Source of the DNA: an uncultured Gammaproteobacteria bacterium
Lineage (GTDB): Bacteria; Patescibacteriota; Patescibacteriia; 2-12-FULL-60-25
NCBI GenBank assembly: GCA_964540365.1
Contig: CAZIMD010000006.1
Span: 1 to 30,649 of the forward strand
Length of the DNA stretch: 30,649 nt
Direction of reading: 5' to 3'
The position numbers and the translations under genes are program-made. This document shows, piece by piece, positions 3,914 to 30,649 of this stretch. The first letter of the stretch is position 1. Each line of letters begins with the position of its first letter. The notes under the pieces were generated by a model. That model was not told where the DNA came from, ran no database searches, and worked only from the letters and a program-made list of their open reading frames with translations.

Positions 3914-5623
3914 ATGCCCCGCTTCGCGCGCATCGTCCCCCTGTGCCGGACGCCGGTAGGGATCGACGCGTTCGATTACGTCTTGCCAGACGGCACGCGC
4001 TGGCTCCCCGGTGACCTGGTCCGCATCCCCCTCCGCGCCCAAACGGTGGAAGGGGTGATTTTGCACGTCTTGGAAACGTCACCATTTGCCGCGAAAGCAA
4101 AACCGATCGCCTCGAACGCTCCCCTGACGCGCTTCGGGCAGGATTGGGTCGACCTGGTCGAATGGCTGGCCGCACGCACGTTCCAGTCGACCGCCAGCAT
4201 CGCCAAAGCGTGGCTGCGCCTCCTTCCGAAGAAGCTGGAACCATGGAAAACGCACGCGGCCGAACGGCCCCAGGCCGGGGGCCTCGAAACGCAGTGGGTC
4301 GCGAACCCGGAAGGCCTGGTCAAGGACCATCTCGCCGAACGCGGACGCACCCTCATCGTCGCCCCGTTCGCCCAACAGGCGGAACGGCTGGCCGCCGCCC
4401 TTGATTGCCCAACGCTCCTCAGCGACGACCCGAAGACGGTCGCGACCGGCACCTGGCGCTCGTTCCTCGAAGGGACGACCCAGACGCTCGTCACGACCCG
4501 CGTCGGTTGCTGGTTGGGGCTCTTTGCCGAGAAGCTCATCCTCCTCGAGCCCGAACAGGACGAGCACAAGCAGGACGAGAGTTCGCCCCGGTTCGACGCG
4601 CGGCTTGTCGCGGCGTGGCTGCACCAGCGCAAGGGGCTCGCGCTCACGGCCATCGGACGCACCCCGCCGATCCATGTCGACCAGGGGGCGGCGACGATCC
4701 CCATCCACCCGCGGCTGAGCATCCGCCACGCCCACGGGCGCAGCGGCGTCCCAGGATTGAACATCGACACCCTTGAAACGCTCCTCGAAAACACGGAGGA
4801 ACGGCCCATCGTCGTAATCCACCCCATCCGCGGGTTGCGCGCGCGCTGCCAGTGCCGGACCTGCGGGTTCGTCGTGGCCTGCACGCGTTGCGGGACGGCC
4901 TTGCGCCGGCAGGAGACGAGCGGCTGGTGCGACCTCTGCCACCTCACCCAGTTCCTTCCGGAAACCTGCCCGCGCTGTGACGGGTTTGATTTTTCCGGCT
5001 CCCCGCCCGGGCTCGACCTCTTGAAACGCGAATGGGCGAAACACGGCTATCCTCCCTGCGCCTGGCGCGACGGCTCCCCCCTCGCCCTCGACCTCCCCTT
5101 TCCCCACCGCGCGCTCGTGCTCGTGACCGAACCGCACCTGCTGGGCGGGTTCGCGGAGGACATTCGCCGCACCGAGCGCCTCTGCCGCACATATCGCAGC
5201 CTCGCAAGCCGGGTGGCCGAGGCGGAGGGCGAGCTGATCCTCCAGGTCCATGATGGGGACACCGACCGGTGGCTCACCTGGCTCACGGCCGACGGGGTCC
5301 GCACGCTTAACCTCGCCGAACGGACCGCACGCGCCGCCTTCCGCTATCCGCCGAGCGTCCGGTTGGCCAAAATCCTGCTGGAAGGGTCGGAAGAGGGCGC
5401 AGCGCGAACATGCAACGAGCTCCAGGCGGCCTGCGCCGCCGACCCGGCCTTCCTCGAGCTCCGCGGCCCCTTCTTGGCGGAAGGCCGGGTCCGGACCCGC
5501 GCCCGCTGGGTGGCGCACCTCCTCTTCCGTCCCGAAACCAGCGAACAGGCGCTCCTCGCGCGCCTCCGCCCGTGGGCCCGGCACGCGAAGATCGACCTTG
5601 ACGCCGTGGCGTTTTTGCGCTAA
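3914..5623 (+). CDS. priA: Primosomal protein N' (PriA)-like, shortened, with degenerate helicase motifs
   Basis: N-terminal 'FDYVLP...PGDLVRIPLR...GVIL' 3'-binding domain; four CxxC pairs (CRTC, CTRC, CDLC, CPRC); 'SPRFDAR'; C-terminal 'FRYPP'; upstream of def-fmt. No GxTGSGKT Walker A, and the DEEH position reads EPEQ. Confidence 0.75.
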   Translation: MPRFARIVPLCRTPVGIDAFDYVLPDGTRWLPGDLVRIPLRAQTVEGVILHVLETSPFAAKAKPIASNAPLTRFGQDWVDLVEWLAARTFQSTASIAKAWLRLLPKKLEPWKTHAAERPQAGGLETQWVANPEGLVKDHLAERGRTLIVAPFAQQAERLAAALDCPTLLSDDPKTVATGTWRSFLEGTTQTLVTTRVGCWLGLFAEKLILLEPEQDEHKQDESSPRFDARLVAAWLHQRKGLALTAIGRTPPIHVDQGAATIPIHPRLSIRHAHGRSGVPGLNIDTLETLLENTEERPIVVIHPIRGLRARCQCRTCGFVVACTRCGTALRRQETSGWCDLCHLTQFLPETCPRCDGFDFSGSPPGLDLLKREWAKHGYPPCAWRDGSPLALDLPFPHRALVLVTEPHLLGGFAEDIRRTERLCRTYRSLASRVAEAEGELILQVHDGDTDRWLTWLTADGVRTLNLAERTARAAFRYPPSVRLAKILLEGSEEGAARTCNELQAACAADPAFLELRGPFLAEGRVRTRARWVAHLLFRPETSEQALLARLRPWARHAKIDLDAVAFLR

Positions 5624-20696: not shown

Positions 20697-21807
20697 CCAG
20701 CGCCTCCTCCTGAACGCCGAGCCGTTCGGGTTCGGCCCGAGCGCCGCCATCGCCACGTTCTTCCCCTTCCTGCGCGAACGGTTTTCCTGGATCGGCTATC
20801 TGGGGAGCGGGCACACGCTCGACCTCCAACGACCGCTCCCTTACGACGAGATCATCGACTCGACGGGATTTTCTGAAACCGAAGAATCGCAGCTCATGAC
20901 GGAACTCGGCGAACGATATGACCTCCTTTTAACGGCCCTAGACTTCCGCATCGCCGAACAGGCTAAACGGGCGGGCCTGGTCGCCTGCGTCTACGATCCC
21001 ATCACTTGGTTCTGGAAAGAGATCCCTCCGGCCGCACGCGGTTGCGACCTGTATATTGCGCAAAACTTTATCGGCGTCGAGGCGCGCCTCGAACGCGAAC
21101 GCGACCGGTTCCCCCGTACCGTCCTAGTGCCCGCGATCGTGGAACCGAACATGGGCGGACCGCGGACACGGGAGCGCGTCCTCATCAACCTGGGCGGCCT
21201 ACAGAACCCGTTCTGGACGATCCAGGATGCCGCGCATTATGCGCGCGAGACGATCCGCGCCCTCAGACAGGTGCTTCCAAAGGACCTCCCCATCACGATC
21301 GCGACCAGCCAGGCAGTCGTCGATGCGCTCGGCGATCCCGATGCACAGCCCTACCGCCGCGCGGAAATGGAAACGCTCATGCGGACGAGCGCCTATGCCT
21401 TCATGACTCCCGGACTTGGGAACATCTACGACAGCGCCTGCCATGATCTTCCCACCGCCTGGCTCCCCGCCGCGAACGACAGCCAGGGGCAGCAGGCGGA
21501 TCTGCTGGAACGCGAAGGCCTCTGCGACGCGCGTCTCGACTGGAAGGACCTCCTTCCGGGACAACCGTTCTCGTATTGGGGCGAACAGGCGGAGGCGCTT
21601 AAACGGATCACGGCAGCCGTCCAGCAGCTGACCGCGCGGCCAGAAGCGCAACAGCGACTGGAAGACGCCTGTCGGCAAGCGATACAAACTCTTCAAAATC
21701 GGCCCGGAACGAGTGGCCGCGCCCTCCTAACGCGGTTCGGGACCGGTGGGGCGCGGCAGGTGGCGGTAGCCGTCTTCGAGCTGGCCGAAACGGATGCGAT
21801 TTCTTAG
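20683..21807 (+). CDS. Putative GT-B glycosyltransferase, possibly related to cytosylglucuronate-synthase-like enzymes
   Basis: N-terminal 'LLLNAEPFGFGPSA' glycine loop, mid 'VLINLGG', C-terminal 'TPGLGNIYDSA...PTAWLPAANDSQ' donor-binding pattern. Subfamily call is from memory of motifs only. Confidence 0.5.
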   Translation: MKRSNQRLLLNAEPFGFGPSAAIATFFPFLRERFSWIGYLGSGHTLDLQRPLPYDEIIDSTGFSETEESQLMTELGERYDLLLTALDFRIAEQAKRAGLVACVYDPITWFWKEIPPAARGCDLYIAQNFIGVEARLERERDRFPRTVLVPAIVEPNMGGPRTRERVLINLGGLQNPFWTIQDAAHYARETIRALRQVLPKDLPITIATSQAVVDALGDPDAQPYRRAEMETLMRTSAYAFMTPGLGNIYDSACHDLPTAWLPAANDSQGQQADLLEREGLCDARLDWKDLLPGQPFSYWGEQAEALKRITAAVQQLTARPEAQQRLEDACRQAIQTLQNRPGTSGRALLTRFGTGGARQVAVAVFELAETDAIS

Positions 21808-21845
21808 AGATTACGCCGAAAAAGCGACGGGGAAGGCTGCACGCC

Positions 21846-21874
21846 TTGCCTTCCCCGCCCCGTCCGGGTACGAT
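21846..21874 (+). promoter_or_regulatory. tRNA promoter
   Basis: TTGCCT-17 nt-TACGAT, 21 nt upstream of the tRNA. Confidence 0.55.
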
Positions 21875-21895
21875 GGCCCGGCACGAAAAACCCAT

Positions 21896-21969
21896 AGGGG
21901 CGTCGTATAATGGTAGTACAACGGTCTCCAAAACCGTTAGCGTGGGTTCGATTCCCCCCGCCCCTGCCA
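21896..21969 (+). tRNA. trnW: tRNA-Trp (CCA)
   Basis: Acceptor stem AGGGGCG/CGCCCCT, discriminator G, encoded CCA end; anticodon arm ACGGT-CTCCAAA-ACCGT; T loop TTCGATT. Confidence 0.96.
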
Positions 21970-23454
21970 CGCCGAACACTCGTCAACCGACGAGTGTTTT
22001 GCTATCGAAAAAAACGGTTGTTTCAGCGTAAAATCAGGCACAGAATCCTTGATCGTGGAGTTCGATAGTAAAAATTGGAGTAGTTCGCGTTTTTCTTCTG
22101 GTTTCGCTTGTTCAAACAGTTTTCCTGCGTTTTTTGCGAGTTCTAAAATCTTTCGGCCAAACTCGTAATAACCGATGTCTGCCTTGTTGTGTAATGCGAT
22201 GCGTTCGGCAAGATCGTCGAGACGGGTTTTATACTCGGCATACTTGGAATCGTAGAACTCATCGCTCACTCGACCATCGAGTTTATCTTCGTACATCTTG
22301 TCGAGCCTATTTTTGAGCATGGAGTGCTCCCGAACGAGCATGTCGTAGTCTTTGTCGTGCGTAGCCCGCTTCTCTTCTAACGACTGTTTCAAGCCCGTCA
22401 CGACATAAGCAAGGCCGTTCTCGCTCAAATGGACTTTATCAAACAAAGTGCGCGTTTCAACGTCGATAACCTCTTCACGGATCGGCTTCTGCGAACAGGC
22501 TGTCTCGAACTTGGTACAACGATAGTAAACGTATTTCCCTTTCTTGATCTCAGCCGTGATCGTGCGGTCACATTCACCACAAGCGAAAACACCCTTATAA
22601 ACAAAGGGCTTGATGTTATGTCGCTTGCATTTGTTCAGATTCTTGCCGCTTAGAACGTCCTGTACGGCTTGCCACGTCTCCAAATCAACCAACGGGGCAT
22701 GCTTGCCGTCGTAGAGTTTGCCCTGCCATATGAACTTGCCGATGTAAAAAGGATCGTGAAGCATCCGAGACATGACGGACTTCTTTAGCTCGCAGCGACC
22801 AATGGGCATGTCCTTGGCCAATTTCAAATCCTCAACGTATTGGACGATGCTTTTTAGCGAATGTTGCCCCGTCGCATACACGTTGAAAATCGTTTGTATG
22901 AGCTGTTTATTTCTCTCGTCGATAATGATGATCGACTTTTTCGTGATCGGGTCTTTAGCGTTTAGGTATCCGAGGGGAGCTTGATGCGGATACTCCCCGA
23001 GCCGCAGCTTCTCTTTGATGCCTTTGTCTACCTCTTCTTTGAGGTTGTCGATAAATCCCTTCGCCATGACGGTTTTCAGGCCGTGCATGAGCTTATCCGA
23101 CGCCTTGCTGTCCGTGCCGATGCTCTGACCTTCTTTGACGAGGTGAACGGTTACGTTACATTCCTTGATGAGCTCTTCAACAGTCACGTAATCGCGGAAG
23201 TTTCGATGCAGGCGATCCGTCTTTTCGACGAGAATAAACTTGATACCGTGCTGGCGAACGTAGGCGAGCATCTTGTTGAACTCCTTGCGCCCTGCTTCCT
23301 TAGCCGTTTCAGCCTCTTCAAACTCTTTGACCACGTTATAGCCATTATTGCGCGCAAAGTCCCACAGGAGCCGTTTTTGGGCACCAAGTGAATTGCCCAG
23401 CTCCTGCTGTTCACGGCTTGATACTCGGACGTAGGTAACGGCTTTATTAAACAC
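21937..23454 (-). CDS. Large serine recombinase (resolvase + recombinase + Zn-ribbon/coiled coil)
   Basis: 'YVRVSSREQ' catalytic Ser motif, 'EKTDRLHRN', 'APLGY', 'GKHAPLVDLETWQAVQ', 'CGEC...YYRC'. GTG start. The last 11 codons are the tRNA antisense strand. Confidence 0.95.
   Translation of the reverse strand: MFNKAVTYVRVSSREQQELGNSLGAQKRLLWDFARNNGYNVVKEFEEAETAKEAGRKEFNKMLAYVRQHGIKFILVEKTDRLHRNFRDYVTVEELIKECNVTVHLVKEGQSIGTDSKASDKLMHGLKTVMAKGFIDNLKEEVDKGIKEKLRLGEYPHQAPLGYLNAKDPITKKSIIIIDERNKQLIQTIFNVYATGQHSLKSIVQYVEDLKLAKDMPIGRCELKKSVMSRMLHDPFYIGKFIWQGKLYDGKHAPLVDLETWQAVQDVLSGKNLNKCKRHNIKPFVYKGVFACGECDRTITAEIKKGKYVYYRCTKFETACSQKPIREEVIDVETRTLFDKVHLSENGLAYVVTGLKQSLEEKRATHDKDYDMLVREHSMLKNRLDKMYEDKLDGRVSDEFYDSKYAEYKTRLDDLAERIALHNKADIGYYEFGRKILELAKNAGKLFEQAKPEEKRELLQFLLSNSTIKDSVPDFTLKQPFFSIAKHSSVDECSAWQGRGESNPR
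21963..21971 (+). repeat. attL core CCTGCCACG
   Basis: Overlaps the tRNA 3' end; identical copy at 30103-30111; coincides with the composition shift. Confidence 0.75.
21975..22000 (+). terminator. Terminator-like hairpin directly after the tRNA, inside the recombinase CDS
   Basis: AACACTCGTC-AACC-GACGAGTGTT-TT, a perfect 10-bp stem. Confidence 0.6.
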
Positions 23455-23465
23455 ATTGATTACGT

Positions 23466-26057
23466 CTATACGAGTACGACGTGCGATGGTCTCTTTGGAG
23501 GAATGGGGTAATGCAAGTCCTTGTTCGTCGTCATTGAATTTACCTTAGATGGAATATTTGGTACTCCAAAAGCCAAACTGTCGATATAAGGCTGCAACTG
23601 CTTCCGCTCTTCATCTGAGAGCTCGGCAATAAGAACTTGATGCGCATCTTGAATAGTGATTTCCGCAAGACCATCTGACCCTCTGGCCATGGCTCGCATC
23701 TGAACCGCGTAGGCTTCTGTGCATAAGAATGCGCAGAGGTCCGTAATGAGATGCTCTTTCCCTTTTTTTAATCTCATCCTGTGACAGCCGTTTGTAAAAA
23801 CTATCCGTCCACTACATTCGTTGGGAGCAATACACCATTTTGTAACGCTTCCCCATATAGATCCGATAAAAATGTCTCCCGGTTCAGCAAAGTGCTTAGC
23901 ACGCTGAGGCAGCTCCCATCCTCTTAGTTCTGTTGAAGAAAAGTAGCCTTCTCCAATATCTTGTATCTCAACGTAATTGTATATACGATCAATTTTTTTC
24001 TTATTTTTTTCGCCAGCCGCAGTAGTATTTTCGTCGATAAAATCAACGACGTCCCCAAGCTTGAAATGCTTTCGGTTCTGCATCTGGTCTCTTAGATTCC
24101 TATATTTTTTACAATATCGTTTTGGGTCAAGTGTGAGATCATTATCCGTTAGGACATCTAGAATAGGCACGCTCCAGCCACACTGCTTAACAGGTTTTTC
24201 ATGTCCCTGAACAAGCCAAGGGCTTTCTAGCGCAGCCTCGCTACTGCGTAAGCCCTGTAAAGCTGATTCAAAATCAGAATCCAACTTTTTATTTCCTTCA
24301 TCGTCAATAATATAGCTACCGTCTTCTGCGTTGCGTAGATACCTAGGGTCAGCCTTCTTGTCGCCTAAATTCCAGCCTACGTTTTCAATCATTTCAACAG
24401 CAAAACCGTAGTCTCCTTCGTCATGAATGGACTCAAGGGCGACTTCTCTTTTTTGAAAATAAACAACGCTTGCACTTACATCGGCTCCACTAGTTTTGAA
24501 TGTGAATCTTGGGAATGAGCATATGGCCACAAGACGACAATGACGTAGCAGCCAGTCTCTGAGGAGCCTGTATCTCTGGGATCTATTACCCAGATAACCG
24601 TTAGGCAGAATGATGGCTATTCTCCCACCTGGTTTAGCTTGTTTTACACATAACTCAGCAAAGAGGATGCCTGTCTGCTGAGAATCTAATAGTGCATCCT
24701 TTTTATTGAATTTTCCGTCGGAAAGCTCCTCCCACTCATGACCCATGTCGAATTTTCTTAGAGTGGCCGTATTTTTTTCGGTGATTTTTACACCAAATGG
24801 TGGGTTGCAAACAACGATTTCATATTGATCTTCTTTTTCATCTACAACGGCAAGAGAATCTTCTTCAATTATGTTCGATTTCCCATCACCATTTAGCATC
24901 ATATTAAGTATCGCGACCTGTACAGCGTTTTTGGAGTTGTCTGCTCCCCAAATACAGCTTGCGTAATTAGGATCAGAATCTCGGCGCCTATGAAATGCGG
25001 CGGTTAAAAAATCTGCACTTCCGCATGCGGGGTCTTTAATATGCTCACTAAATTGCGGGTTTAGGATGTCTACAATAAAATCCGTGACTGTAGGAGGCGT
25101 GAAATATTGAGCCAGATCCCATTTGTAGAGACCTTTCGCAAACTTCATGTAGAAAGACTGTACCACCTCTCTTTTTGAGGCCGTAATCCTGATAGGCGCA
25201 AGTACCCTACAGATTTCAAAAAAGATTTTGATTGTTACTTTGCTCGATAGCCTTGTTTCGACGGGCCGAGGCAAATGGCGCTGATAGTAGCTAACTGATT
25301 TTTCTAGAGTATCGTTAAACTGCCTAAGCGCAGAGGCTCCATCGTAGCCCAAAGATTCATAATCTTGTATGTTTAATTCTGAAGATGGGCTACTCTGATG
25401 ACCGTGCTCATCAAAAAGTTTAGCGAGAATCAACTGCAGAATAATACCAAAACGCTGCTCTGGATCGATCGACCCACTATGAAGCAGATTCTCAATTCTA
25501 TCGAATAGGGACAATAAGTTCTCTGAGGCCTTGGTATCTTGATAAGCGAGAGGCTTTAAGGAAATCGCTCCTCCGAACCTCGGCAAAATGGCCAATGGCC
25601 CCTCTTTAACTTGTTTTTTTCCTTGAAAGCGCTCATGCCAGAACACCCTCTGGTCAACATTATCCCAATATAGAGCGATGCATCTATCAAGTTTTGCAAA
25701 GTCCAGCAAGGGTTTTACCTGTGTATTTTTTACGTATTCATGATTTGCGTTTTCTCGTTTTACTTCACATAGCAGGATCGCATGTTCGAGCAAGGTATCA
25801 ACATCACCGGCAGGGATAGAATCAACTGGAACATCTAGAACGGCAAAATCGGCTCTCACGCTATTCCTGCCAGAATTACCGAATTGTTTTACAACCACTT
25901 CAATCTTAAAATGGCCTCTTGGGTATCCAAGCCTAAGTAGGTATTTAATAGCCTCAACCCGATAACACTCCTCAAGCGGCCCTAAGCCATCCCTGCTGGT
26001 TGTCCTGGCCTTTAACGTGCCGCGAATAGGACATTGCAGCGTAAGAGGTGATTGCAT
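23466..26057 (-). CDS. Type IIG-like restriction-modification fusion (PD-(D/E)XK nuclease + amino-MTase + TRD)
   Basis: N-terminal 'RADFAVLD...LLCEVKR'; 'AQYFTP', 'DPACGSADFL' (motif I), 'NPPF' (motif IV); C-terminal specificity-like domain 'FKLGDVVDF...YVEIQDI...PGDIFIGSI'. Confidence 0.85.
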   Translation of the reverse strand: MQSPLTLQCPIRGTLKARTTSRDGLGPLEECYRVEAIKYLLRLGYPRGHFKIEVVVKQFGNSGRNSVRADFAVLDVPVDSIPAGDVDTLLEHAILLCEVKRENANHEYVKNTQVKPLLDFAKLDRCIALYWDNVDQRVFWHERFQGKKQVKEGPLAILPRFGGAISLKPLAYQDTKASENLLSLFDRIENLLHSGSIDPEQRFGIILQLILAKLFDEHGHQSSPSSELNIQDYESLGYDGASALRQFNDTLEKSVSYYQRHLPRPVETRLSSKVTIKIFFEICRVLAPIRITASKREVVQSFYMKFAKGLYKWDLAQYFTPPTVTDFIVDILNPQFSEHIKDPACGSADFLTAAFHRRRDSDPNYASCIWGADNSKNAVQVAILNMMLNGDGKSNIIEEDSLAVVDEKEDQYEIVVCNPPFGVKITEKNTATLRKFDMGHEWEELSDGKFNKKDALLDSQQTGILFAELCVKQAKPGGRIAIILPNGYLGNRSQRYRLLRDWLLRHCRLVAICSFPRFTFKTSGADVSASVVYFQKREVALESIHDEGDYGFAVEMIENVGWNLGDKKADPRYLRNAEDGSYIIDDEGNKKLDSDFESALQGLRSSEAALESPWLVQGHEKPVKQCGWSVPILDVLTDNDLTLDPKRYCKKYRNLRDQMQNRKHFKLGDVVDFIDENTTAAGEKNKKKIDRIYNYVEIQDIGEGYFSSTELRGWELPQRAKHFAEPGDIFIGSIWGSVTKWCIAPNECSGRIVFTNGCHRMRLKKGKEHLITDLCAFLCTEAYAVQMRAMARGSDGLAEITIQDAHQVLIAELSDEERKQLQPYIDSLAFGVPNIPSKVNSMTTNKDLHYPIPPKRPSHVVLV

Positions 26058-26071
26058 AGAGTTGATGGATT

Positions 26072-26245
26072 TTAGTTTTTGGTAGCCTCAATGAATTCGT
26101 TAAATGTTTTGCGACTAATGCGGTATTCCTTACCAATTTTGGAAGCAGTCAGCTTTTTTGCCTTAATCCAGCGATAGATCGTCATCTTGTTTACACGGAG
26201 TTTTTCTGCCAGTTCCTCAACCCGGTAAAAATCCAGCTCATTCAT
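26072..26245 (-). CDS. Excisionase-like HTH DNA-binding protein (57 aa)
   Basis: Manual ORF MNELDFYRVEELAEKLRVNKMTIYRWIKAKKLTASKIGKEYRISRKTFNEFIEATKN, matching the HTH_17/xis pattern. Confidence 0.85.
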   Translation of the reverse strand: MNELDFYRVEELAEKLRVNKMTIYRWIKAKKLTASKIGKEYRISRKTFNEFIEATKN

Positions 26246-26258
26246 AGTTGATAATAGC

Positions 26259-27446
26259 TTACATTGTCACGCTCGTTTCAGCAACGCCCCCGAGCATAAG
26301 GTCAAGGTCTTCTGGGAGGATTGGCGTAAAGGTTTTAAGTTTCTGGTGAAGGTAGGCTAAAACGTTGATCTTGTCCTTTGATGCCTTGGCGTCGAACAGG
26401 ACTGCTTCAACCAGCTTGCGGTAGCGATTTGCGGATGACTTGCCTATCGCGTCTCGCAACTCATCGGTCGCCCGCTTTAGCCCGAGTTTACGAACACGGT
26501 GCGCCAATAGGTACAAAGCCCCCTGCTGACCAAACCCTCGTACGCTGGTCTTTATGACGTTATACAGCTCCGCGTCCTTTAGTCCGCCCAGATAGACCAG
26601 CCCGCCATACCCTTGAATGTAAATCTGCTCGAACGTCCGCAAGAGCATGGCTTGGGAGATGTCCGTCCGTAGCGCTTCGCCTAACGTAAAATCCTTCTTC
26701 TTGTTCGGATAGTACTTTCGTAGAGTCGCCTCAACCGTCTGCTTCAATTGCAGCGACAGCTCCATACGCAGTGCTCCCCGCTGGAACTTGCCTTGCGCGT
26801 AGTGCTGCTTGACCTCCCTCTCTACCAGCGTTGACCCGTTGGCGCAGATTTCCTCGAACTTATCGTAGATCACAAAGCCTTGAGACGAGTTGAAGAACTT
26901 GAGATAGAACCCGTCTTTTCCGTGGTGATAATTGACCTTATTGAAATCGGAAGACTGCTTGCGATCATGCTCCGATAGCGCACGGATAATCGCCGCCGTA
27001 CTCCCGTAACTTGGGCTAATCTTGAGTATCTTTGAGTAATCAACGCGCTGAACGATTGCGTCCATAACCGCCTCTTCTGACACTCCTATCTTGATTTCCG
27101 CCAACGCAGTCTTGAGCTTGGAGGCGATAAGGGGCAAAAAGCGAGAGTCGATGTCGAAGAGGCTGATGCCGTAGATCAGTTTGGGGAGGGATACCTGTAC
27201 GAGTAGATGCTTCTCATCTGTGAACTTTCCGCACGAGCCCTTGATAAGCCTTTGGTCGTACATGATGTTTACCTGCGGGAAGTACCGACCCTCAGTCTTG
27301 GCTTTGGTTGGATAGTCAGTAAAGCGCGTCCAATGCCTCCCCACAATCCCAAACTTGCCGCGAAACTCCTGCATCTTTGCCTTTGAAAAGCGTTCGTCCG
27401 TATAGAGGATGAAGTCCTTGATCTTGAGAACGACGGAATCAATCAT
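26259..27446 (-). CDS. Rolling-circle replication initiator/relaxase-like protein (Rep_trans / phage gene II-X superfamily)
   Basis: 'MIDSV' start, 'QVSLPKLIYG', 'VQRVDYS', 'FVIYDKFEE' (Y-x-K-x-x-E, candidate catalytic Tyr), 'ALRMELSL', in the order typical of this superfamily. Confidence 0.65.
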   Translation of the reverse strand: MIDSVVLKIKDFILYTDERFSKAKMQEFRGKFGIVGRHWTRFTDYPTKAKTEGRYFPQVNIMYDQRLIKGSCGKFTDEKHLLVQVSLPKLIYGISLFDIDSRFLPLIASKLKTALAEIKIGVSEEAVMDAIVQRVDYSKILKISPSYGSTAAIIRALSEHDRKQSSDFNKVNYHHGKDGFYLKFFNSSQGFVIYDKFEEICANGSTLVEREVKQHYAQGKFQRGALRMELSLQLKQTVEATLRKYYPNKKKDFTLGEALRTDISQAMLLRTFEQIYIQGYGGLVYLGGLKDAELYNVIKTSVRGFGQQGALYLLAHRVRKLGLKRATDELRDAIGKSSANRYRKLVEAVLFDAKASKDKINVLAYLHQKLKTFTPILPEDLDLMLGGVAETSVTM

Positions 27447-27604
27447 AGTGTCGGCTGTGGTTTATTGATACGGCGTTCGATGTTGTATAGGGTCTCAAAG
27501 AATCCGATCAGGTTTTTACCCGCGTCTTTGACTACCTCTGCGGGTATCCCGAGCTCTTCAAGAAGATACCGTTTTGCCAATTGGTCGGCATTTTCGGACA
27601 ACAT
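27443..27604 (-). CDS. Small hypothetical protein (53 aa) coupled to rep
   Basis: Manual ORF MLSENADQLAKRYLLEELGIPAEVVKDAGKNLIGFFETLYNIERRINKPQPTL; GGAG upstream; ATGA overlap with rep. Confidence 0.65.
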   Translation of the reverse strand: MLSENADQLAKRYLLEELGIPAEVVKDAGKNLIGFFETLYNIERRINKPQPTL

Positions 27605-27719
27605 AAAACTCCGTAGGGCTTAGCCACACGGAGCTTGTTCGGATCGTATACGGCTTGCCGCTTGCGCGTAGCCGCTCTATAATCCGTTTGCGTGATGCTT
27701 CCGTAAGGAATCGTCCCAT
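27558..27719 (-). CDS. Possible small basic protein (53 aa)
   Basis: Manual ORF MGRFLTEASRKRIIERLRASGK...; overlaps the next ORF by 47 nt; weak support. Confidence 0.3.
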   Translation of the reverse strand: MGRFLTEASRKRIIERLRASGKPYTIRTSSVWLSPTEFYVVRKCRPIGKTVSS

Positions 27720-27783
27720 TAGATCGCCTGTTACAGCAGGCGGTTTATTTGTTATTGAGTGAATGGTAGTGCATATAGGCTAC

Positions 27784-28473
27784 TTAGAAGGGTAGATTAT
27801 CCCAGTCGATTGCCGAGAATGACCATTTCAGCCTGTACTGGTCTACGCAGATTTCCATCGTTTTAGGCGAGACGCAGAACGTATCGGCCAAGGTACGGAT
27901 GTCCTTTTCCCGCTTGTAGGCATCCGCGAGCAGAGGCGCGGGGACGAGGTAGTACGACGCGATATTTTCTGCGATACGCTCGATCAGCTTCCCTCGCACT
28001 TCGGCTGACGGCAACGCTTCCATGGAAGACCGAAAGTGCGGGTCAAGGCGCTGGTATACGTGGATGAACTCGTGAGCAACCGAGAAACGTTTTCTGGTCT
28101 GCGGACAGTTCGAGGCGTAGTAAATCTTGATCGTGTCTCCCTCGATAACATGACAGCCATGGACTCCGGGAAGGGTCGTATTATCGAAACCGTAATACTC
28201 GATCTTGAATCCGCTCAGGTAACGCTCAAAGGGCTTGAAGCTGATAGGGATCGTCAGGGTTGGATCAGCAATCAAGATATTGTCTATAGCCTCTCGAAAA
28301 TAGGCTTGCCAGTGCTTGAGCTGGGAGTAGTAGAGCTGCTTCAGCGGGTACGGAAGATGGAACGACTTATGACGTAATGCATGGCTGTATGAAAGGTCGG
28401 AGAAGTCGTATAGCCAGAAATCGAGAGGATCAGCTTGTTTAGTTTTTGCGCTTATGACGGATAAACTCGACAT
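27784..28473 (-). CDS. ImmA/IrrE family zinc metallopeptidase
   Basis: 'RKRFSVAHEFIH' (HExxH) and 'ERIAENIASYYLVP'; directly downstream of an XRE gene. Start uncertain. Confidence 0.88.
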   Translation of the reverse strand: MSSLSVISAKTKQADPLDFWLYDFSDLSYSHALRHKSFHLPYPLKQLYYSQLKHWQAYFREAIDNILIADPTLTIPISFKPFERYLSGFKIEYYGFDNTTLPGVHGCHVIEGDTIKIYYASNCPQTRKRFSVAHEFIHVYQRLDPHFRSSMEALPSAEVRGKLIERIAENIASYYLVPAPLLADAYKREKDIRTLADTFCVSPKTMEICVDQYRLKWSFSAIDWDNLPF

Positions 28474-28786
28474 ACTGGATTACATCCTTGACTTCTGGAA
28501 CGGTCAGGCCGAAACCGTCGCTACGCAAGGCATTTTGAAGAATTAGACTGGTGTTAGGGGTCTTGTCGTCTTCAAGCAGGCCGATGTCGGACAAAAAGTC
28601 CTTCAACGAAAGCTCAAGCCCCTTAGCCAATTTTTGACACACATCAAGAGTGAGGCTCTGGTAGCCTCCACTCTCAAGACGACTTATATACGCGACGGAA
28701 ACGCCGGCGGCTTTTGCGAGTTCGGTCTGGGTTAGGCCAGATTTCTCTCGCATAGTCTTCATTTGCTTGGCAATGATGTTACTCAT
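28439..28786 (-). CDS. XRE-family HTH repressor (ImmR-like)
   Basis: 'MKTMREKSGLTQTELAKAAGVSVAYISRLESG...LTLDVCQKLAKGLELS', with a C-terminal helix 'VKDVIQYVEFIR'. Confidence 0.92.
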   Translation of the reverse strand: MSNIIAKQMKTMREKSGLTQTELAKAAGVSVAYISRLESGGYQSLTLDVCQKLAKGLELSLKDFLSDIGLLEDDKTPNTSLILQNALRSDGFGLTVPEVKDVIQYVEFIRHKRKN

Positions 28787-28794
28787 ACTACAAC

Positions 28795-28828
28795 ATAGTA
28801 AAAGATGACTTGCCGATTGTCAAATCGG
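28795..28828 (-). promoter_or_regulatory. Leaderless repressor promoter with overlapping palindromic operator
   Basis: Minus strand TTGACA (28823-28818)-17 nt-TACTAT (28800-28795)-8 nt-ATG. The inverted repeat CCGATT-GTCA-AATCGG (28813-28828) covers the -35 box. Confidence 0.75.
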
Positions 28829-28874
28829 ACTACGCAGTTTGTAAAAACGTGGCTCCTTGTGGTAGCCTCAAAAC

Positions 28875-30014
28875 ATGGGAACACATATCACGCTTAATTT
28901 GGGGGAGCTCAATATCCACTGGGGGAAAAACGAATGCTGGTTTGACCATAGCCCCTTATTTCAGGTAAACGACGTAAAAAAGAGCCTAGATAGCCAGATC
29001 GACGCGAGCGAAACAGAACAACCGACAGAAAGAGAGATCTGCACCAGAAGGCTCCGGGACGTAGCTCCTCGTTTAGAATTGCTCGGCTATAGCAAGGATT
29101 CACTACGTCGAGACTTCCGTGGCTTGGAGATAGATGGCAAAAAGATAAAATCATTCAAGAGAATCGAGGATGCTTTCCTGAAAACATCGGCGTCAGGTTG
29201 CCAAGGGTACTTCTTGGAAAGCGAAGGCATCGTTATTGATCCGTGGATCGTCTTACGGCTTTTAGCCCTAAATAAACAAAATCTTGATGTACCGCTTTCA
29301 TGGAACTTTCATGACTGGGTCGAAAATGGCTGGGGCAATAGAAGCTGGATCATGCAAGGATTGCCAGATGCGCAAAAGTTCTTGCTTTTGACGGAAGGCA
29401 AATCTGATGCAGATATTCTCAAAAAGGCATTCGATCTTTTGCGGCCTGACGTTGCTGATTTCTTTAGGTTTGTGAATATGGAGCGCCACCCTTTTGGTGG
29501 CGAAGGAGGGCTACGCAATTTTTGCCGAGGGCTGGTAAACATCGGCCACAGCAACTTCACACTTGCTATCTACGACAATGATACGGCTGGCATCGGTGGT
29601 ATGCTCGACAGTAAAAATCTAAAAATGCCAAAAAACATGCGTGTAATGAGCCTTCCAAGTATGAAGGAATTCAGCCGCTTTGCGACCCTTGGCCCAAACG
29701 GAGAACGTAAAGAGAACATCAATGGACGAGCTGTAGCCATTGAATGCTTTCTTGATTTGCATCATGGGGGCATGGAAGAGCCAAAAGTTCGCTGGAAAGG
29801 CTTTGATGAGAAGGCAGGCAAGTATCAGGGTGAACTCATCAATAAACATGAATACGCAAAGGAGTTTTCAAAACTAAGCACAAGAGATCGTGGCTATTCT
29901 TTTGAAAAACTTGAGCATCTACTAGACGCGATTATCGCGGAGTGCGTTGGTATCGCAGGCGATTTGCGACGCCATGCATGGAATCAGGCAGCTTTCGATA
30001 ATGCCACTATGTGA
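28875..30014 (+). CDS. HEPN/Toprim-associated N-terminal domain + TOPRIM (OLD-like) nuclease, candidate defence protein
   Basis: N-terminus 'MGTHITLNLGELNIHWGKN...DHSPLFQ..D' resembles HEPN/Toprim-associated N domains; TOPRIM motifs 'LLTEGKSDA', 'FGG', 'IYDNDTAG' (DxD). Confidence 0.7.
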   Translation: MGTHITLNLGELNIHWGKNECWFDHSPLFQVNDVKKSLDSQIDASETEQPTEREICTRRLRDVAPRLELLGYSKDSLRRDFRGLEIDGKKIKSFKRIEDAFLKTSASGCQGYFLESEGIVIDPWIVLRLLALNKQNLDVPLSWNFHDWVENGWGNRSWIMQGLPDAQKFLLLTEGKSDADILKKAFDLLRPDVADFFRFVNMERHPFGGEGGLRNFCRGLVNIGHSNFTLAIYDNDTAGIGGMLDSKNLKMPKNMRVMSLPSMKEFSRFATLGPNGERKENINGRAVAIECFLDLHHGGMEEPKVRWKGFDEKAGKYQGELINKHEYAKEFSKLSTRDRGYSFEKLEHLLDAIIAECVGIAGDLRRHAWNQAAFDNATM

Positions 30015-30109
30015 TCTTCGAGCTGACAAGCGAAAACCGGGATACGTTGGAGCTGGCGATAAATAACTCCCCAATCCAAAGTTCCGAAATCGTCTACTAT
30101 GGCCTGCCA
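29984..30109 (-). other. Detached alternative 3' end of the recombinase gene, used in the excised/attP form
   Basis: Reads WQAIVDDFGTLDWGVIYRQLQRIPVFACQLEDHIVALSKAA-stop, starting in the same att-core codons (TGG CAG) as the LSR's WQ at attL. Confidence 0.6.
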
Positions 30110-30111
30110 CG
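30103..30111 (+). repeat. attR core CCTGCCACG
   Basis: Exact copy of 21963-21971, followed by a terminator hairpin as the tRNA copy is. Confidence 0.7.
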
Positions 30112-30112
30112 G

Positions 30113-30145
30113 AAAAATATCCGCTAGAACAAGCGGGTATTTTTT
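30113..30145 (+). terminator. Intrinsic, possibly bidirectional, terminator after attR
   Basis: AAAAATATCCGCT-AGAACA-AGCGGGTATTTTT-T. Confidence 0.7.
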
Positions 30146-30202
30146 AGAGGAGGAGGAAATTGAGCTTCCCTGAAGCATGTCGGGGTACCCATTCCGTAAA
30201 AG

Positions 30203-30628
30203 ATGCCCGTATTGAATGAGTCTGGTATTTTAAGAATGACGAATATGAAGATTTCAAACGCCGTGGGAACGAAAAGCCCTTTACTCGTTATCAGTTTATG
30301 TATAGGTCTTTTTTTCGCCATTGTGACTCGAGCATCCTTTTTTGTTATTTCATATGACCTCGCTTATATCCAAGTGAGAAATATTTATTTGCGTCCTCCC
30401 CTTAAAGAGTTCGATATAACGAATAGAGGTAAAACCGTTTTGGGTCTGTCAGGTTTTCCGTTTAGGACATATTCAGATTGTACGATAGGCATCCACGGAA
30501 CGCTTCCAAAACCAGCCTGTGAAAGAACATCTCTTATTGGCGAGTTCTCGATTCTGTTCAATATCCTTTTCTGGAGCGGGGCTGTGTATTTGTTTTTAAG
30601 ACTACTGGGCCATCTCCGATCGTCCTAA
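30203..30628 (+). CDS. Hypothetical two-TM membrane protein
   Basis: N- and C-terminal hydrophobic helices around a loop containing 'GFPF'. Start uncertain (30203, 30236 or 30245). Confidence 0.6.
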   Translation: MPVLNESGILRMTNMKISNAVGTKSPLLVISLCIGLFFAIVTRASFFVISYDLAYIQVRNIYLRPPLKEFDITNRGKTVLGLSGFPFRTYSDCTIGIHGTLPKPACERTSLIGEFSILFNILFWSGAVYLFLRLLGHLRSS

Positions 30629-30640
30629 CGTTCATCACGA

Positions 30641-30649
30641 GCCCCTGCC
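30641..30649 (+). repeat. Third att-like copy of the tRNA 3' end, truncated by the window edge
   Basis: GCCCCTGCC is identical to tRNA 21960-21968. The minus-strand reading (W)QGLVMNVRT parallels WQAIVDDFGT at attR. Confidence 0.5.

Follow-up and report, generated by a model that had tools for sequence, protein, structure and literature searches.

Integrons, and the clusters of attC sites lacking integron integrases (CALINs), carry compact co-directional gene cassettes with a conserved, hairpin-bearing site, and such arrays also occur with no recombinase gene nearby. The staphylococcal cassette chromosomes SCC and SCCmec are inserted at the 3' end of rlmH by CcrAB or CcrC, and the Ccr of a neighbour can excise units that have no recombinase of their own. 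The cis-mobilisable elements (CIMEs) of Streptococcus, several kilobases long, stem from integrative and conjugative elements with tyrosine recombinases, and their mobilisation has been demonstrated. They are bounded by functional att sites, have no recombination genes and lie in tandem with an autonomous element that could excise them singly or in a composite. Here we analyse a stretch of 30,649 nucleotides (the window; contig CAZIMD010000006.1 of GenBank assembly GCA_964540365.1, placed by GTDB in Patescibacteriota), in which a tRNA-Trp gene is followed by an island encoding a large serine recombinase (LSR) and by a 541-bp cassette with a single gene, both bounded by copies of the tRNA 3' end.

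The closest published match to this locus is the group of ssrA-specific islands of Dehalococcoides. These islands lie in tandem and are bounded by a 20-bp repeat of the tmRNA 3' end, each copy of which is preceded by a conserved motif of 15 bp. The gene of their LSR, dsiB, overlaps attL and extends into the target gene, and certain islands, devoid of an integration module, have been proposed to be cis-mobilisable. The islands are many kilobases long and require a second, small serine recombinase, DsiA (PMC3146451). In Prochlorococcus, successive integrations of tycheposons at tRNA genes displace the older ones, with partial tRNA repeats and remnants in a streamlined genome, and tyrosine recombinases are used by 910 of 937 tycheposons (10.1101/2020.12.28.424599). 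Our literature search found no description of the arrangement reported here. What is new is its scale and regularity: one-gene cassettes with an arm of about 30 bp and a terminator, located at tRNA-Trp and spread through one family of the Patescibacteria, a group of tiny genomes in which the gain of accessory genes is poorly understood.

A tandem array at the 3' end of tRNA-Trp

The window covers one contig from end to end, in a metagenome-assembled genome (MAG; G000) of 1.06 Mb and 87% completeness. The array consists, in order, of tRNA-Trp, the 8.1-kb LSR island, the 541-bp unit and a relic of the 3' end of an LSR gene. The joints share a 7-bp core, CCTGCCA, which forms the terminal bases of tRNA-Trp and starts at 21963, 30103 and 30641. 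The features of the locus are the following.

21896-21969, plus strand: tRNA-Trp gene (CCA), the anchor of the array (ARAGORN; Rfam tRNA, 62.3 bits)
21937-23454, minus strand: gene for a large serine recombinase of 505 aa (Pfam domains Resolvase, Recombinase and Zn_ribbon_recom; translation)
21960-22014, plus strand: first copy of a 55-bp repeat made up of the tRNA 3' end with the core, CG, a terminator hairpin and an A run
21970-30102: LSR island, 8.1 kb, 47% GC (Pfam; GC step)
30076-30102, plus strand: right arm of the island, type P2 (AAAGTTyCGAA ... TATGG, then the core)
30103-30111, plus strand: second core copy, CCTGCCACG, which bounds the cassette on the left and is the attR of the LSR island
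30112-30145, plus strand: terminator-like hairpin at the left end of the cassette (fold of -18.1 kcal/mol, z -4.95, none of 200 shuffles as stable)
30203-30628, plus strand: cargo open reading frame (ORF), a small membrane protein with two hydrophobic segments
30622-30643, plus strand: right arm of the cassette, type P1 (GTyCTAACGTy .... CAC.AGC, then the core)
30641-30649, plus strand: third core copy, GCCCCTGCC, at the contig end

We consider the locus to be best explained by serial site-specific integration at CCTGCCA, with the cassette relying on an LSR supplied in trans; our rough probability for this reading is 0.6. The array, its boundaries and conserved arms, and its occurrence across the family with varying cargo are direct observations, and it is very probable that the segment 30110-30650 is a unit of a site-specific array.

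The original prediction, made from the window alone, had placed a third copy of the tRNA 3' end 541 bp past attR, and the distance from CCA end to CCA end (30109 to 30650) is indeed 541 bp. It had also described the intervening DNA as a terminator and a single membrane-protein ORF with a stop codon 12 nt ahead of the third copy, and this description holds. The composition of the segment is unlike that of the host: GC content falls from 0.656 in the host DNA upstream of tRNA-Trp to 0.467 in 21970-30100 and 0.43 in 30103-30649, so that the latter segment is foreign, non-host-like DNA. As the cargo gene was also not found in the eight genomes of the same genus, the cassette segment is not a fixed part of the host chromosome.

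On the LSR island, the first copy of the 55-bp repeat forms the left arm (P'), and its opposite strand encodes the last codons of the LSR. The hairpin within it folds at -19.7 kcal/mol (z -6.68). An Rfam scan returned the tRNA as the sole match, and the third core copy is therefore not a tRNA-like gene.

The third junction

The nonamer GCCCCTGCC has two copies in the window, only at 21960-21968 and 30641-30649. Taken as a bare 9-bp match, this is not significant, since the expectation is 0.74 copies and at least two occur in 20 of 100 shuffles. The second of these copies also falls exactly at the contig end, and a chance match or an assembly artefact would account for both facts. Independent assembly and recurrence in other genomes speak against it. 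We compared the Logan contigs of four sequencing runs with 20700-30649. A 14.6-kb contig from run X1, the probable source sample, covers 21913-30640, continues into a second copy of 21960-22014 and then diverges for 5.8 kb. After 30640 come the core, ACG, the hairpin and a run of A, identical to 21960-22014 at 55 of 55 bp; the A/ACG and hairpin proposed as a check on the original prediction are thus present in the source sample. In other words, a second assembler repeats the same order on the source reads, and the match grows from 9 to 55 bp. The 27 nt ending in the third core also fit a motif, YCKRAYRTYNNNNACNAKYCCCTGCCA, with 25 sites in 18 of the 127 genomes of the family and in 13 of its 33 genera, whereas the reversed control motif has no matches. 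Outside this set, 53 stretches of a species-representative collection contain the motif, mostly from Patescibacteria, with a few likely chance matches in other phyla. Given the 55-bp continuation in the second assembly and the recurrent 27-nt motif, the third core is real, and an origin by chance or artefact is scarcely credible.

The contig end at 30649 is an assembly break caused by the 55-bp repeat. The sequence beyond the third junction was found neither in the MAG nor in JGI metagenome contigs. The junction is followed by a 46-bp LSR relic: because the 55 bp equal the antisense of the last LSR codons, a stub of an older LSR element lies past the third core.

Run X2 contains an 800-nt contig (depth 8 against 20) in which the same 28-nt right arm (30622-30649) is followed by ACA and the cassette-type hairpin (30113-30142), while other sequence precedes the shared arm. 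Judging by this contig, the X2 sample holds another array, with a different cassette before this type of hairpin. Runs X3 and X5-X12 match only small shares of the stretch, and the pieces from X3 miss the cassette.

The 541-bp cassette

The cassette begins with its terminator-like hairpin, followed on the 3' side by the purine-rich GAGGAGGAGG at 30147-30156. Hairpins of the same type are located after the tRNA or after cores in G002, G003, G005, G020, G078 and G087. The cargo frame (30203-30628) is the sole sizeable ORF of the segment, and its TAA stop (30626-30628), 12 nt ahead of the third core, lies inside the conserved right arm. Four cassettes (that of the window and those at L022, L050 and L051) have a main ORF that terminates on this conserved TAA of the P1 arm. 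A Pfam scan of 30110-30650 found no recombinase domain, as had been claimed for this segment. A scan of 29900-30649 limited to the sigma-70 consensus found no promoter-like sites.

Alignments of the cargo protein with its homologues start at residue 24-28 of the ORF and at about residue 10 of the homologue. The true start is therefore probably ATG 30236 or 30245, rather than 30203. The protein belongs to no Pfam or NCBIfam family. An exhaustive search of 1.8 billion proteins recovered 31 representative clusters, which amounts to a small family; a word-based homologue search found no match, exact-protein look-ups with three alternative starts found no record, and an Atlas feature search returned unnamed clusters only. 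One homologue with 58% identity, in L138, has ACGTTCATC starting two bases past its stop codon (site at L138:1843-1870). This sequence is the distal half of the P1 arm, with no core after it, and the gene stands in a co-directional row of small genes; the site may be an eroded junction.

Arrays in related genomes

Rows of units are present 3' of tRNA-Trp in many relatives, and their joints have the same make-up: a conserved arm, CCTGCCA and a terminator-like hairpin. In G017, the tRNA is followed by a 698-bp unit with a single P-loop kinase gene, then by the core and 289 bp of the 3' end of the window LSR; further along lies an 87% match to the right arm of the window island. This remnant is a true deletion relic of the window's LSR element. 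In G020, the order is tRNA, an acyltransferase-like unit, a second unit, and an LSR stub of 79 bp behind the core. Both ends of this second unit, the left hairpin and the right arm, are homologous to those of the window cassette, while the genes between them are unrelated. At least four units are found in G002.

With duplicates removed, we collected 43 non-redundant units bounded by the same junctions. Most are 0.45-1.5 kb long with a single ORF in the direction of the tRNA, which starts just past the hairpin and usually ends within about 100 nt of the arm. An intact LSR is present in only two units, the 8.1-kb island of the window and an 8.8-kb island in G078, both adjoining the tRNA. Three cassettes are common to genomes of different genera at 76-85% nucleotide identity; the homology ends at the junctions, and the neighbours differ. 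The original prediction had raised the possibility of a tandem cassette stack at tRNA-Trp, with the third copy as another element-derived right arm, and both proposals gain support from these relatives and from the continued contig.

The single-gene units could also have arisen as immobile scars, that is, as once-autonomous elements reduced by internal deletion and kept for a terminating hairpin and a useful or neutral gene. True relics do occur in the same arrays: the 289 bp and right arm in G017, the 46 bp in the window, and the stubs in G019, G020, G073 and G137. Arrays are also present in genomes with no LSR match, and movement of the window cassette was nowhere seen. Against an origin by deletion, the cassette contains no recombinase remnant and its gene follows directly after the left hairpin. 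Independent deletions would rarely spare both ends and exactly one gene in the tRNA direction, yet this is the commonest unit type. The unit in G020 combines the same two ends with an unrelated gene, and whole cassettes are found in different genera, with breaks at the junctions. Taken together, the units look more like discrete, exchangeable cassettes than like scars of random deletion: conserved ends with unrelated cargo, compact one-gene units and sharing across genera favour a cassette family over a deletion relic, and we regard the scar as unlikely.

Stubs of the 3' end of the window LSR lie directly past the core in five other genera (G017, L014; G020, L015; G019, L027; G137, L124; G073, L125). 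They are 78-290 bp long, with 77-95% protein identity, and their hairpins may be kept as terminators for whatever is upstream.

Several side observations concern the records themselves. The three listed junctions of L080 (JAGOLG010000100.1) and their flanks are identical to those of G086:C10, with shifted coordinates. Contigs with arrays of the Patescibacteria type bear record titles such as Rhabdochlamydiaceae or 'uncultured Gammaproteobacteria', and these names, or the binning, look unreliable. A second tRNA-anchored island occupies 1-4750 of contig C11 of G000, which begins inside a tRNA: a 28-bp direct repeat of the tRNA 3' end (TTCGATCCCCACCGGTCCCACCACGCAA) is found again at 4671, with a hairpin after each copy, and the two copies enclose about 4.6 kb of 45% GC. 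Five further contigs of G000 (C13, C23, C40, C44 and C46) have one end exactly at a tRNA 3' end, and C23 opens with CCGCCA, CG and a hairpin, after which come 2 kb with a GC content of about 50%. Transfer RNA genes appear to be general break points in this assembly and are probably insertion points.

The LSR island

The LSR frame crosses the core into the antisense strand of tRNA-Trp, which places the gene on the attL side of the island. It is the only PF00239 match in the MAG and the sole serine recombinase found there. The remaining cargo of the island comprises an N6-methyltransferase, a 395-aa protein of unknown function, an IrrE/M78 peptidase with a helix-turn-helix (HTH) protein, and a HEPN/Toprim protein. 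The right arm of the island, the one with the 87% match in the G017 relic, is of type P2, and arms of this type end the second intact LSR unit (G078) as well as several small units that have no recombinase gene.

A 95%-identical LSR element from another study (run X4) runs exactly from core to core, corresponding to 21963-30109. Its contig halts at both cores, and the right arm has two continuations, one a chromosomal hairpin and the other the element's own left arm. Coexisting integrated and circular (or tandem) forms would give such a contig graph; a similarly composed array junction might account for the branching instead. In the X4 copy, 2266 other letters replace 23445-26282, the region of the N6-methyltransferase gene, which constitutes a cargo swap in an otherwise conserved element. 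The predicted attP junction of the LSR element had no match in viral or metagenome contigs, and a search of IMG/VR for close relatives of the LSR returned matches of 22-29% identity only.

LSR genes are present in 72 of the 127 family genomes, with up to eight matches per genome. The nearest orthologues in the family (56-59% identity; G103, G073 and G138) have no CCTGCCA near their 3' ends, and because of this they are uninformative about the tRNA-Trp site. Several distantly related LSRs (25-29% identity) adjoin tRNA-Trp in the same way.

Attachment arms and the candidate recombinase

Each junction is composed of a non-palindromic 27-nt arm, the 7-bp core and a near-perfect terminator-like hairpin. 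The consensus of the P1 arm, to which the window cassette belongs, is GTyCTAACGTy....CAC.AGC followed by CCCTGCCA; the P2 arm is shared by both intact LSR islands and several recombinase-less small units. With the core as the fixed point, the best match between P1 and P2 is the in-register one (p 0.0004 at that offset, 0.024 across 17 offsets). The original prediction had read the minus strand from the third copy as (W)QGLVMNVRT, which is correct, and had likened it to WQAIVDDFGT at attR; the peptides agree at only 4 of 10 residues, a weak likeness, while the underlying DNA arms are in register. Each of the two arms matches the T-loop motif of the tRNA best at a 5-bp outward shift, with p of about 0.005 for that offset before correction across offsets. 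In serine integrases, as Rutherford et al. reportedly found in 2013, the motif of the zinc-ribbon domain lies 5 bp further out in attP than in attB. The shift is suggestive only, and would point to the attP/attB geometry of a serine integrase.

The recombinase genes found inside arrays are LSRs only, with frames crossing the core, and an LSR is likely to be the enzyme that makes the joints. The alternative is that the joints are real and were made by some other process, either a host tyrosine recombinase of the Xer kind or RecA-dependent exchange after DNA uptake, with the conserved junctions of about 80 bp serving as portable homology. Almost every genome of the family (121 of 127) has a gene with PF00589 (Phage_integrase). 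The repeats of core plus hairpin are often near-identical within one genome (55 of 55 bp in the window), enough for homologous exchange, and the hairpins vary by lineage as if host-specific. On the other side, no tyrosine recombinase gene was found in or beside the examined arrays, and PF00589 had no match in the scanned island genes or in the 87%-complete MAG. Since 121 of 127 relatives have such a gene, its absence from the MAG is probably a gap due to incompleteness and no argument against tyrosine recombinases. Two-fold symmetry of the dif/Xer type was not seen by eye at the junction. Right arms are also kept across genera far beyond their flanks, which is better explained by a protein-binding site than by neutral homology. 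An origin of the joints by such other processes is accordingly judged improbable, more so than the deletion scar.

A co-occurrence of the P1 motif with LSR genes was considered as support and rejected: LSR genes are present in 13 of the 18 genomes with the motif and in 59 of the 109 others, a difference too small to count among related genomes.

A number of observations weigh against serial integration by an LSR in trans. No further copy of the window's cassette was found elsewhere by protein look-ups, homologue searches or comparison with the family genomes, and the cargo homologues (the best three and two in the family) sit outside core-bounded junctions. The P1 arm of the cassette equals the window LSR's own arm at only 8 of 23 non-core positions, and among the 43 units an intact LSR is never paired with a P1 arm. 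Once corrected for the 17 offsets, the 5-bp shift, which had been spotted before it was tested, has p = 0.08-0.14. The genomes with arrays and no LSR match include G014, G019, G020 and G110, and the tyrosine recombinases in 121 of 127 genomes offer a rival enzyme. The sequences right of the core differ widely between lineages, even if the hairpins are often near-identical inside one genome. The contigs of the four runs contain no circle junction or empty site for the cassette, as far as contigs retain rare forms, which tend to drop out of them; nor do they contain a composite junction of cassette and island. A last difficulty concerns the target. To our knowledge, classical serine integrases never use attL as a target. 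Enzymes of the Ccr type do accept an attL-like target. Repeated entry beside the tRNA requires a laxer enzyme of the Ccr kind, because the target is then attL-like.

Proposed assembly of the array

Under serial integration, 30110-30650 would be a non-autonomous, single-gene integrative unit, the second in a tandem array at the 3' end of tRNA-Trp. Its plan is that of the other units: a terminator hairpin on the left, cargo in the direction of the tRNA, and a conserved right arm that spans about 27-33 bp and has the core as its end. An incoming unit would insert beside the tRNA and displace the older units outward. With entry beside the tRNA, the age order, newest first, is the intact LSR island, the membrane-protein cassette and the LSR relic. 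The history of the locus may then have begun with an LSR element that entered at tRNA-Trp and decayed to a stub, a state of the tRNA that is seen in G019 and G073. The membrane-protein cassette would have inserted between tRNA and stub, and a cassette arm is joined to an LSR stub in the same way in G017, G020 and G137. Finally, the present LSR island would have inserted next to the tRNA. In a variant of this history, island and cassette could have come together, as one composite circle, to a tRNA that already bore the stub.

The recombinase would be an LSR acting in trans, here that of the neighbouring island, with the cassette supplying only the sites. The original prediction had left a choice between a cassette mobilised in trans and a relic. 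The comparison of units favours the cassette family; the movement of the window cassette, and the part played by its neighbouring LSR, are inferred. The LSR of the window may act on the P1 arm, and the cassette is perhaps still mobilisable, which we hold to be possible without expecting it.

The arrays may represent an integron-like platform for gene capture in Patescibacteria that employs a different class of enzyme, the LSRs of transient islands; this proposal is tentative. On the same tentative footing, a cassette could amount to hardly more than a terminator hairpin, a single ORF and a half-site, about 30 bp long, for a serine integrase, and LSRs might conceivably insert and excise such cassettes singly at the 3' end of tRNA-Trp. 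If so, swappable one-gene cassettes at a tRNA would provide a compact way of acquiring genes, akin to integrons and mechanistically distinct. The junctions would also represent minimal natural attachment sites (about 30 bp plus a 7-bp core) for diverse serine integrases, of interest for genome engineering. The window is a good test case, as 9 kb of it contain an intact LSR with both of its own sites, a cassette whose arm differs from these, and an old scar.

Comparison with known systems

The window cassette resembles a CIME in being bounded by att sites, devoid of recombination genes and in tandem with an autonomous element that shares its core, with arms in register. Unlike CIMEs, it measures 541 bp and is associated with an LSR, and we infer its mobilisation. 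The position of the newest unit beside the tRNA is as in tycheposon arrays. Those have repeats of partial tRNA, with no one-gene cassettes with conserved ends described, in contrast to the 7-bp core and non-tRNA arm found here.

With integrons and CALINs, the arrays share compact, mostly single-gene cassettes that run in one direction and each end in a conserved site. They differ in having no IntI, attI or Pc promoter, in having a tRNA gene at the head of the array, and in being associated with serine recombinases; the hairpin, moreover, resembles an intrinsic terminator and not attC. SCC composites, also among the closest published analogues, are similar in integrating at the 3' end of a conserved gene, by means of an LSR as is likely here too, and in the site repeats between tandem units. 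The target of SCC, however, is a protein gene (rlmH) and its units are large, as opposed to a tRNA and one-gene cassettes, and the window LSR scores 76-88 bits against NCBIfam cut-offs of 700-900 for the Ccr families, which places it outside CcrA, CcrB and CcrC.

The ssrA islands of Dehalococcoides have the following features in common with the arrays: tandem units, repeats of the target's 3' end, a motif upstream of the repeat, an LSR gene overlapping attL, and units without a recombinase. They are distinguished by their use of tmRNA and a 20-bp repeat, where the window uses tRNA-Trp and a core of 7-9 bp. The units described here also show no evident second recombinase, and most of them consist of one gene and a terminator hairpin in 0.45-1.5 kb.

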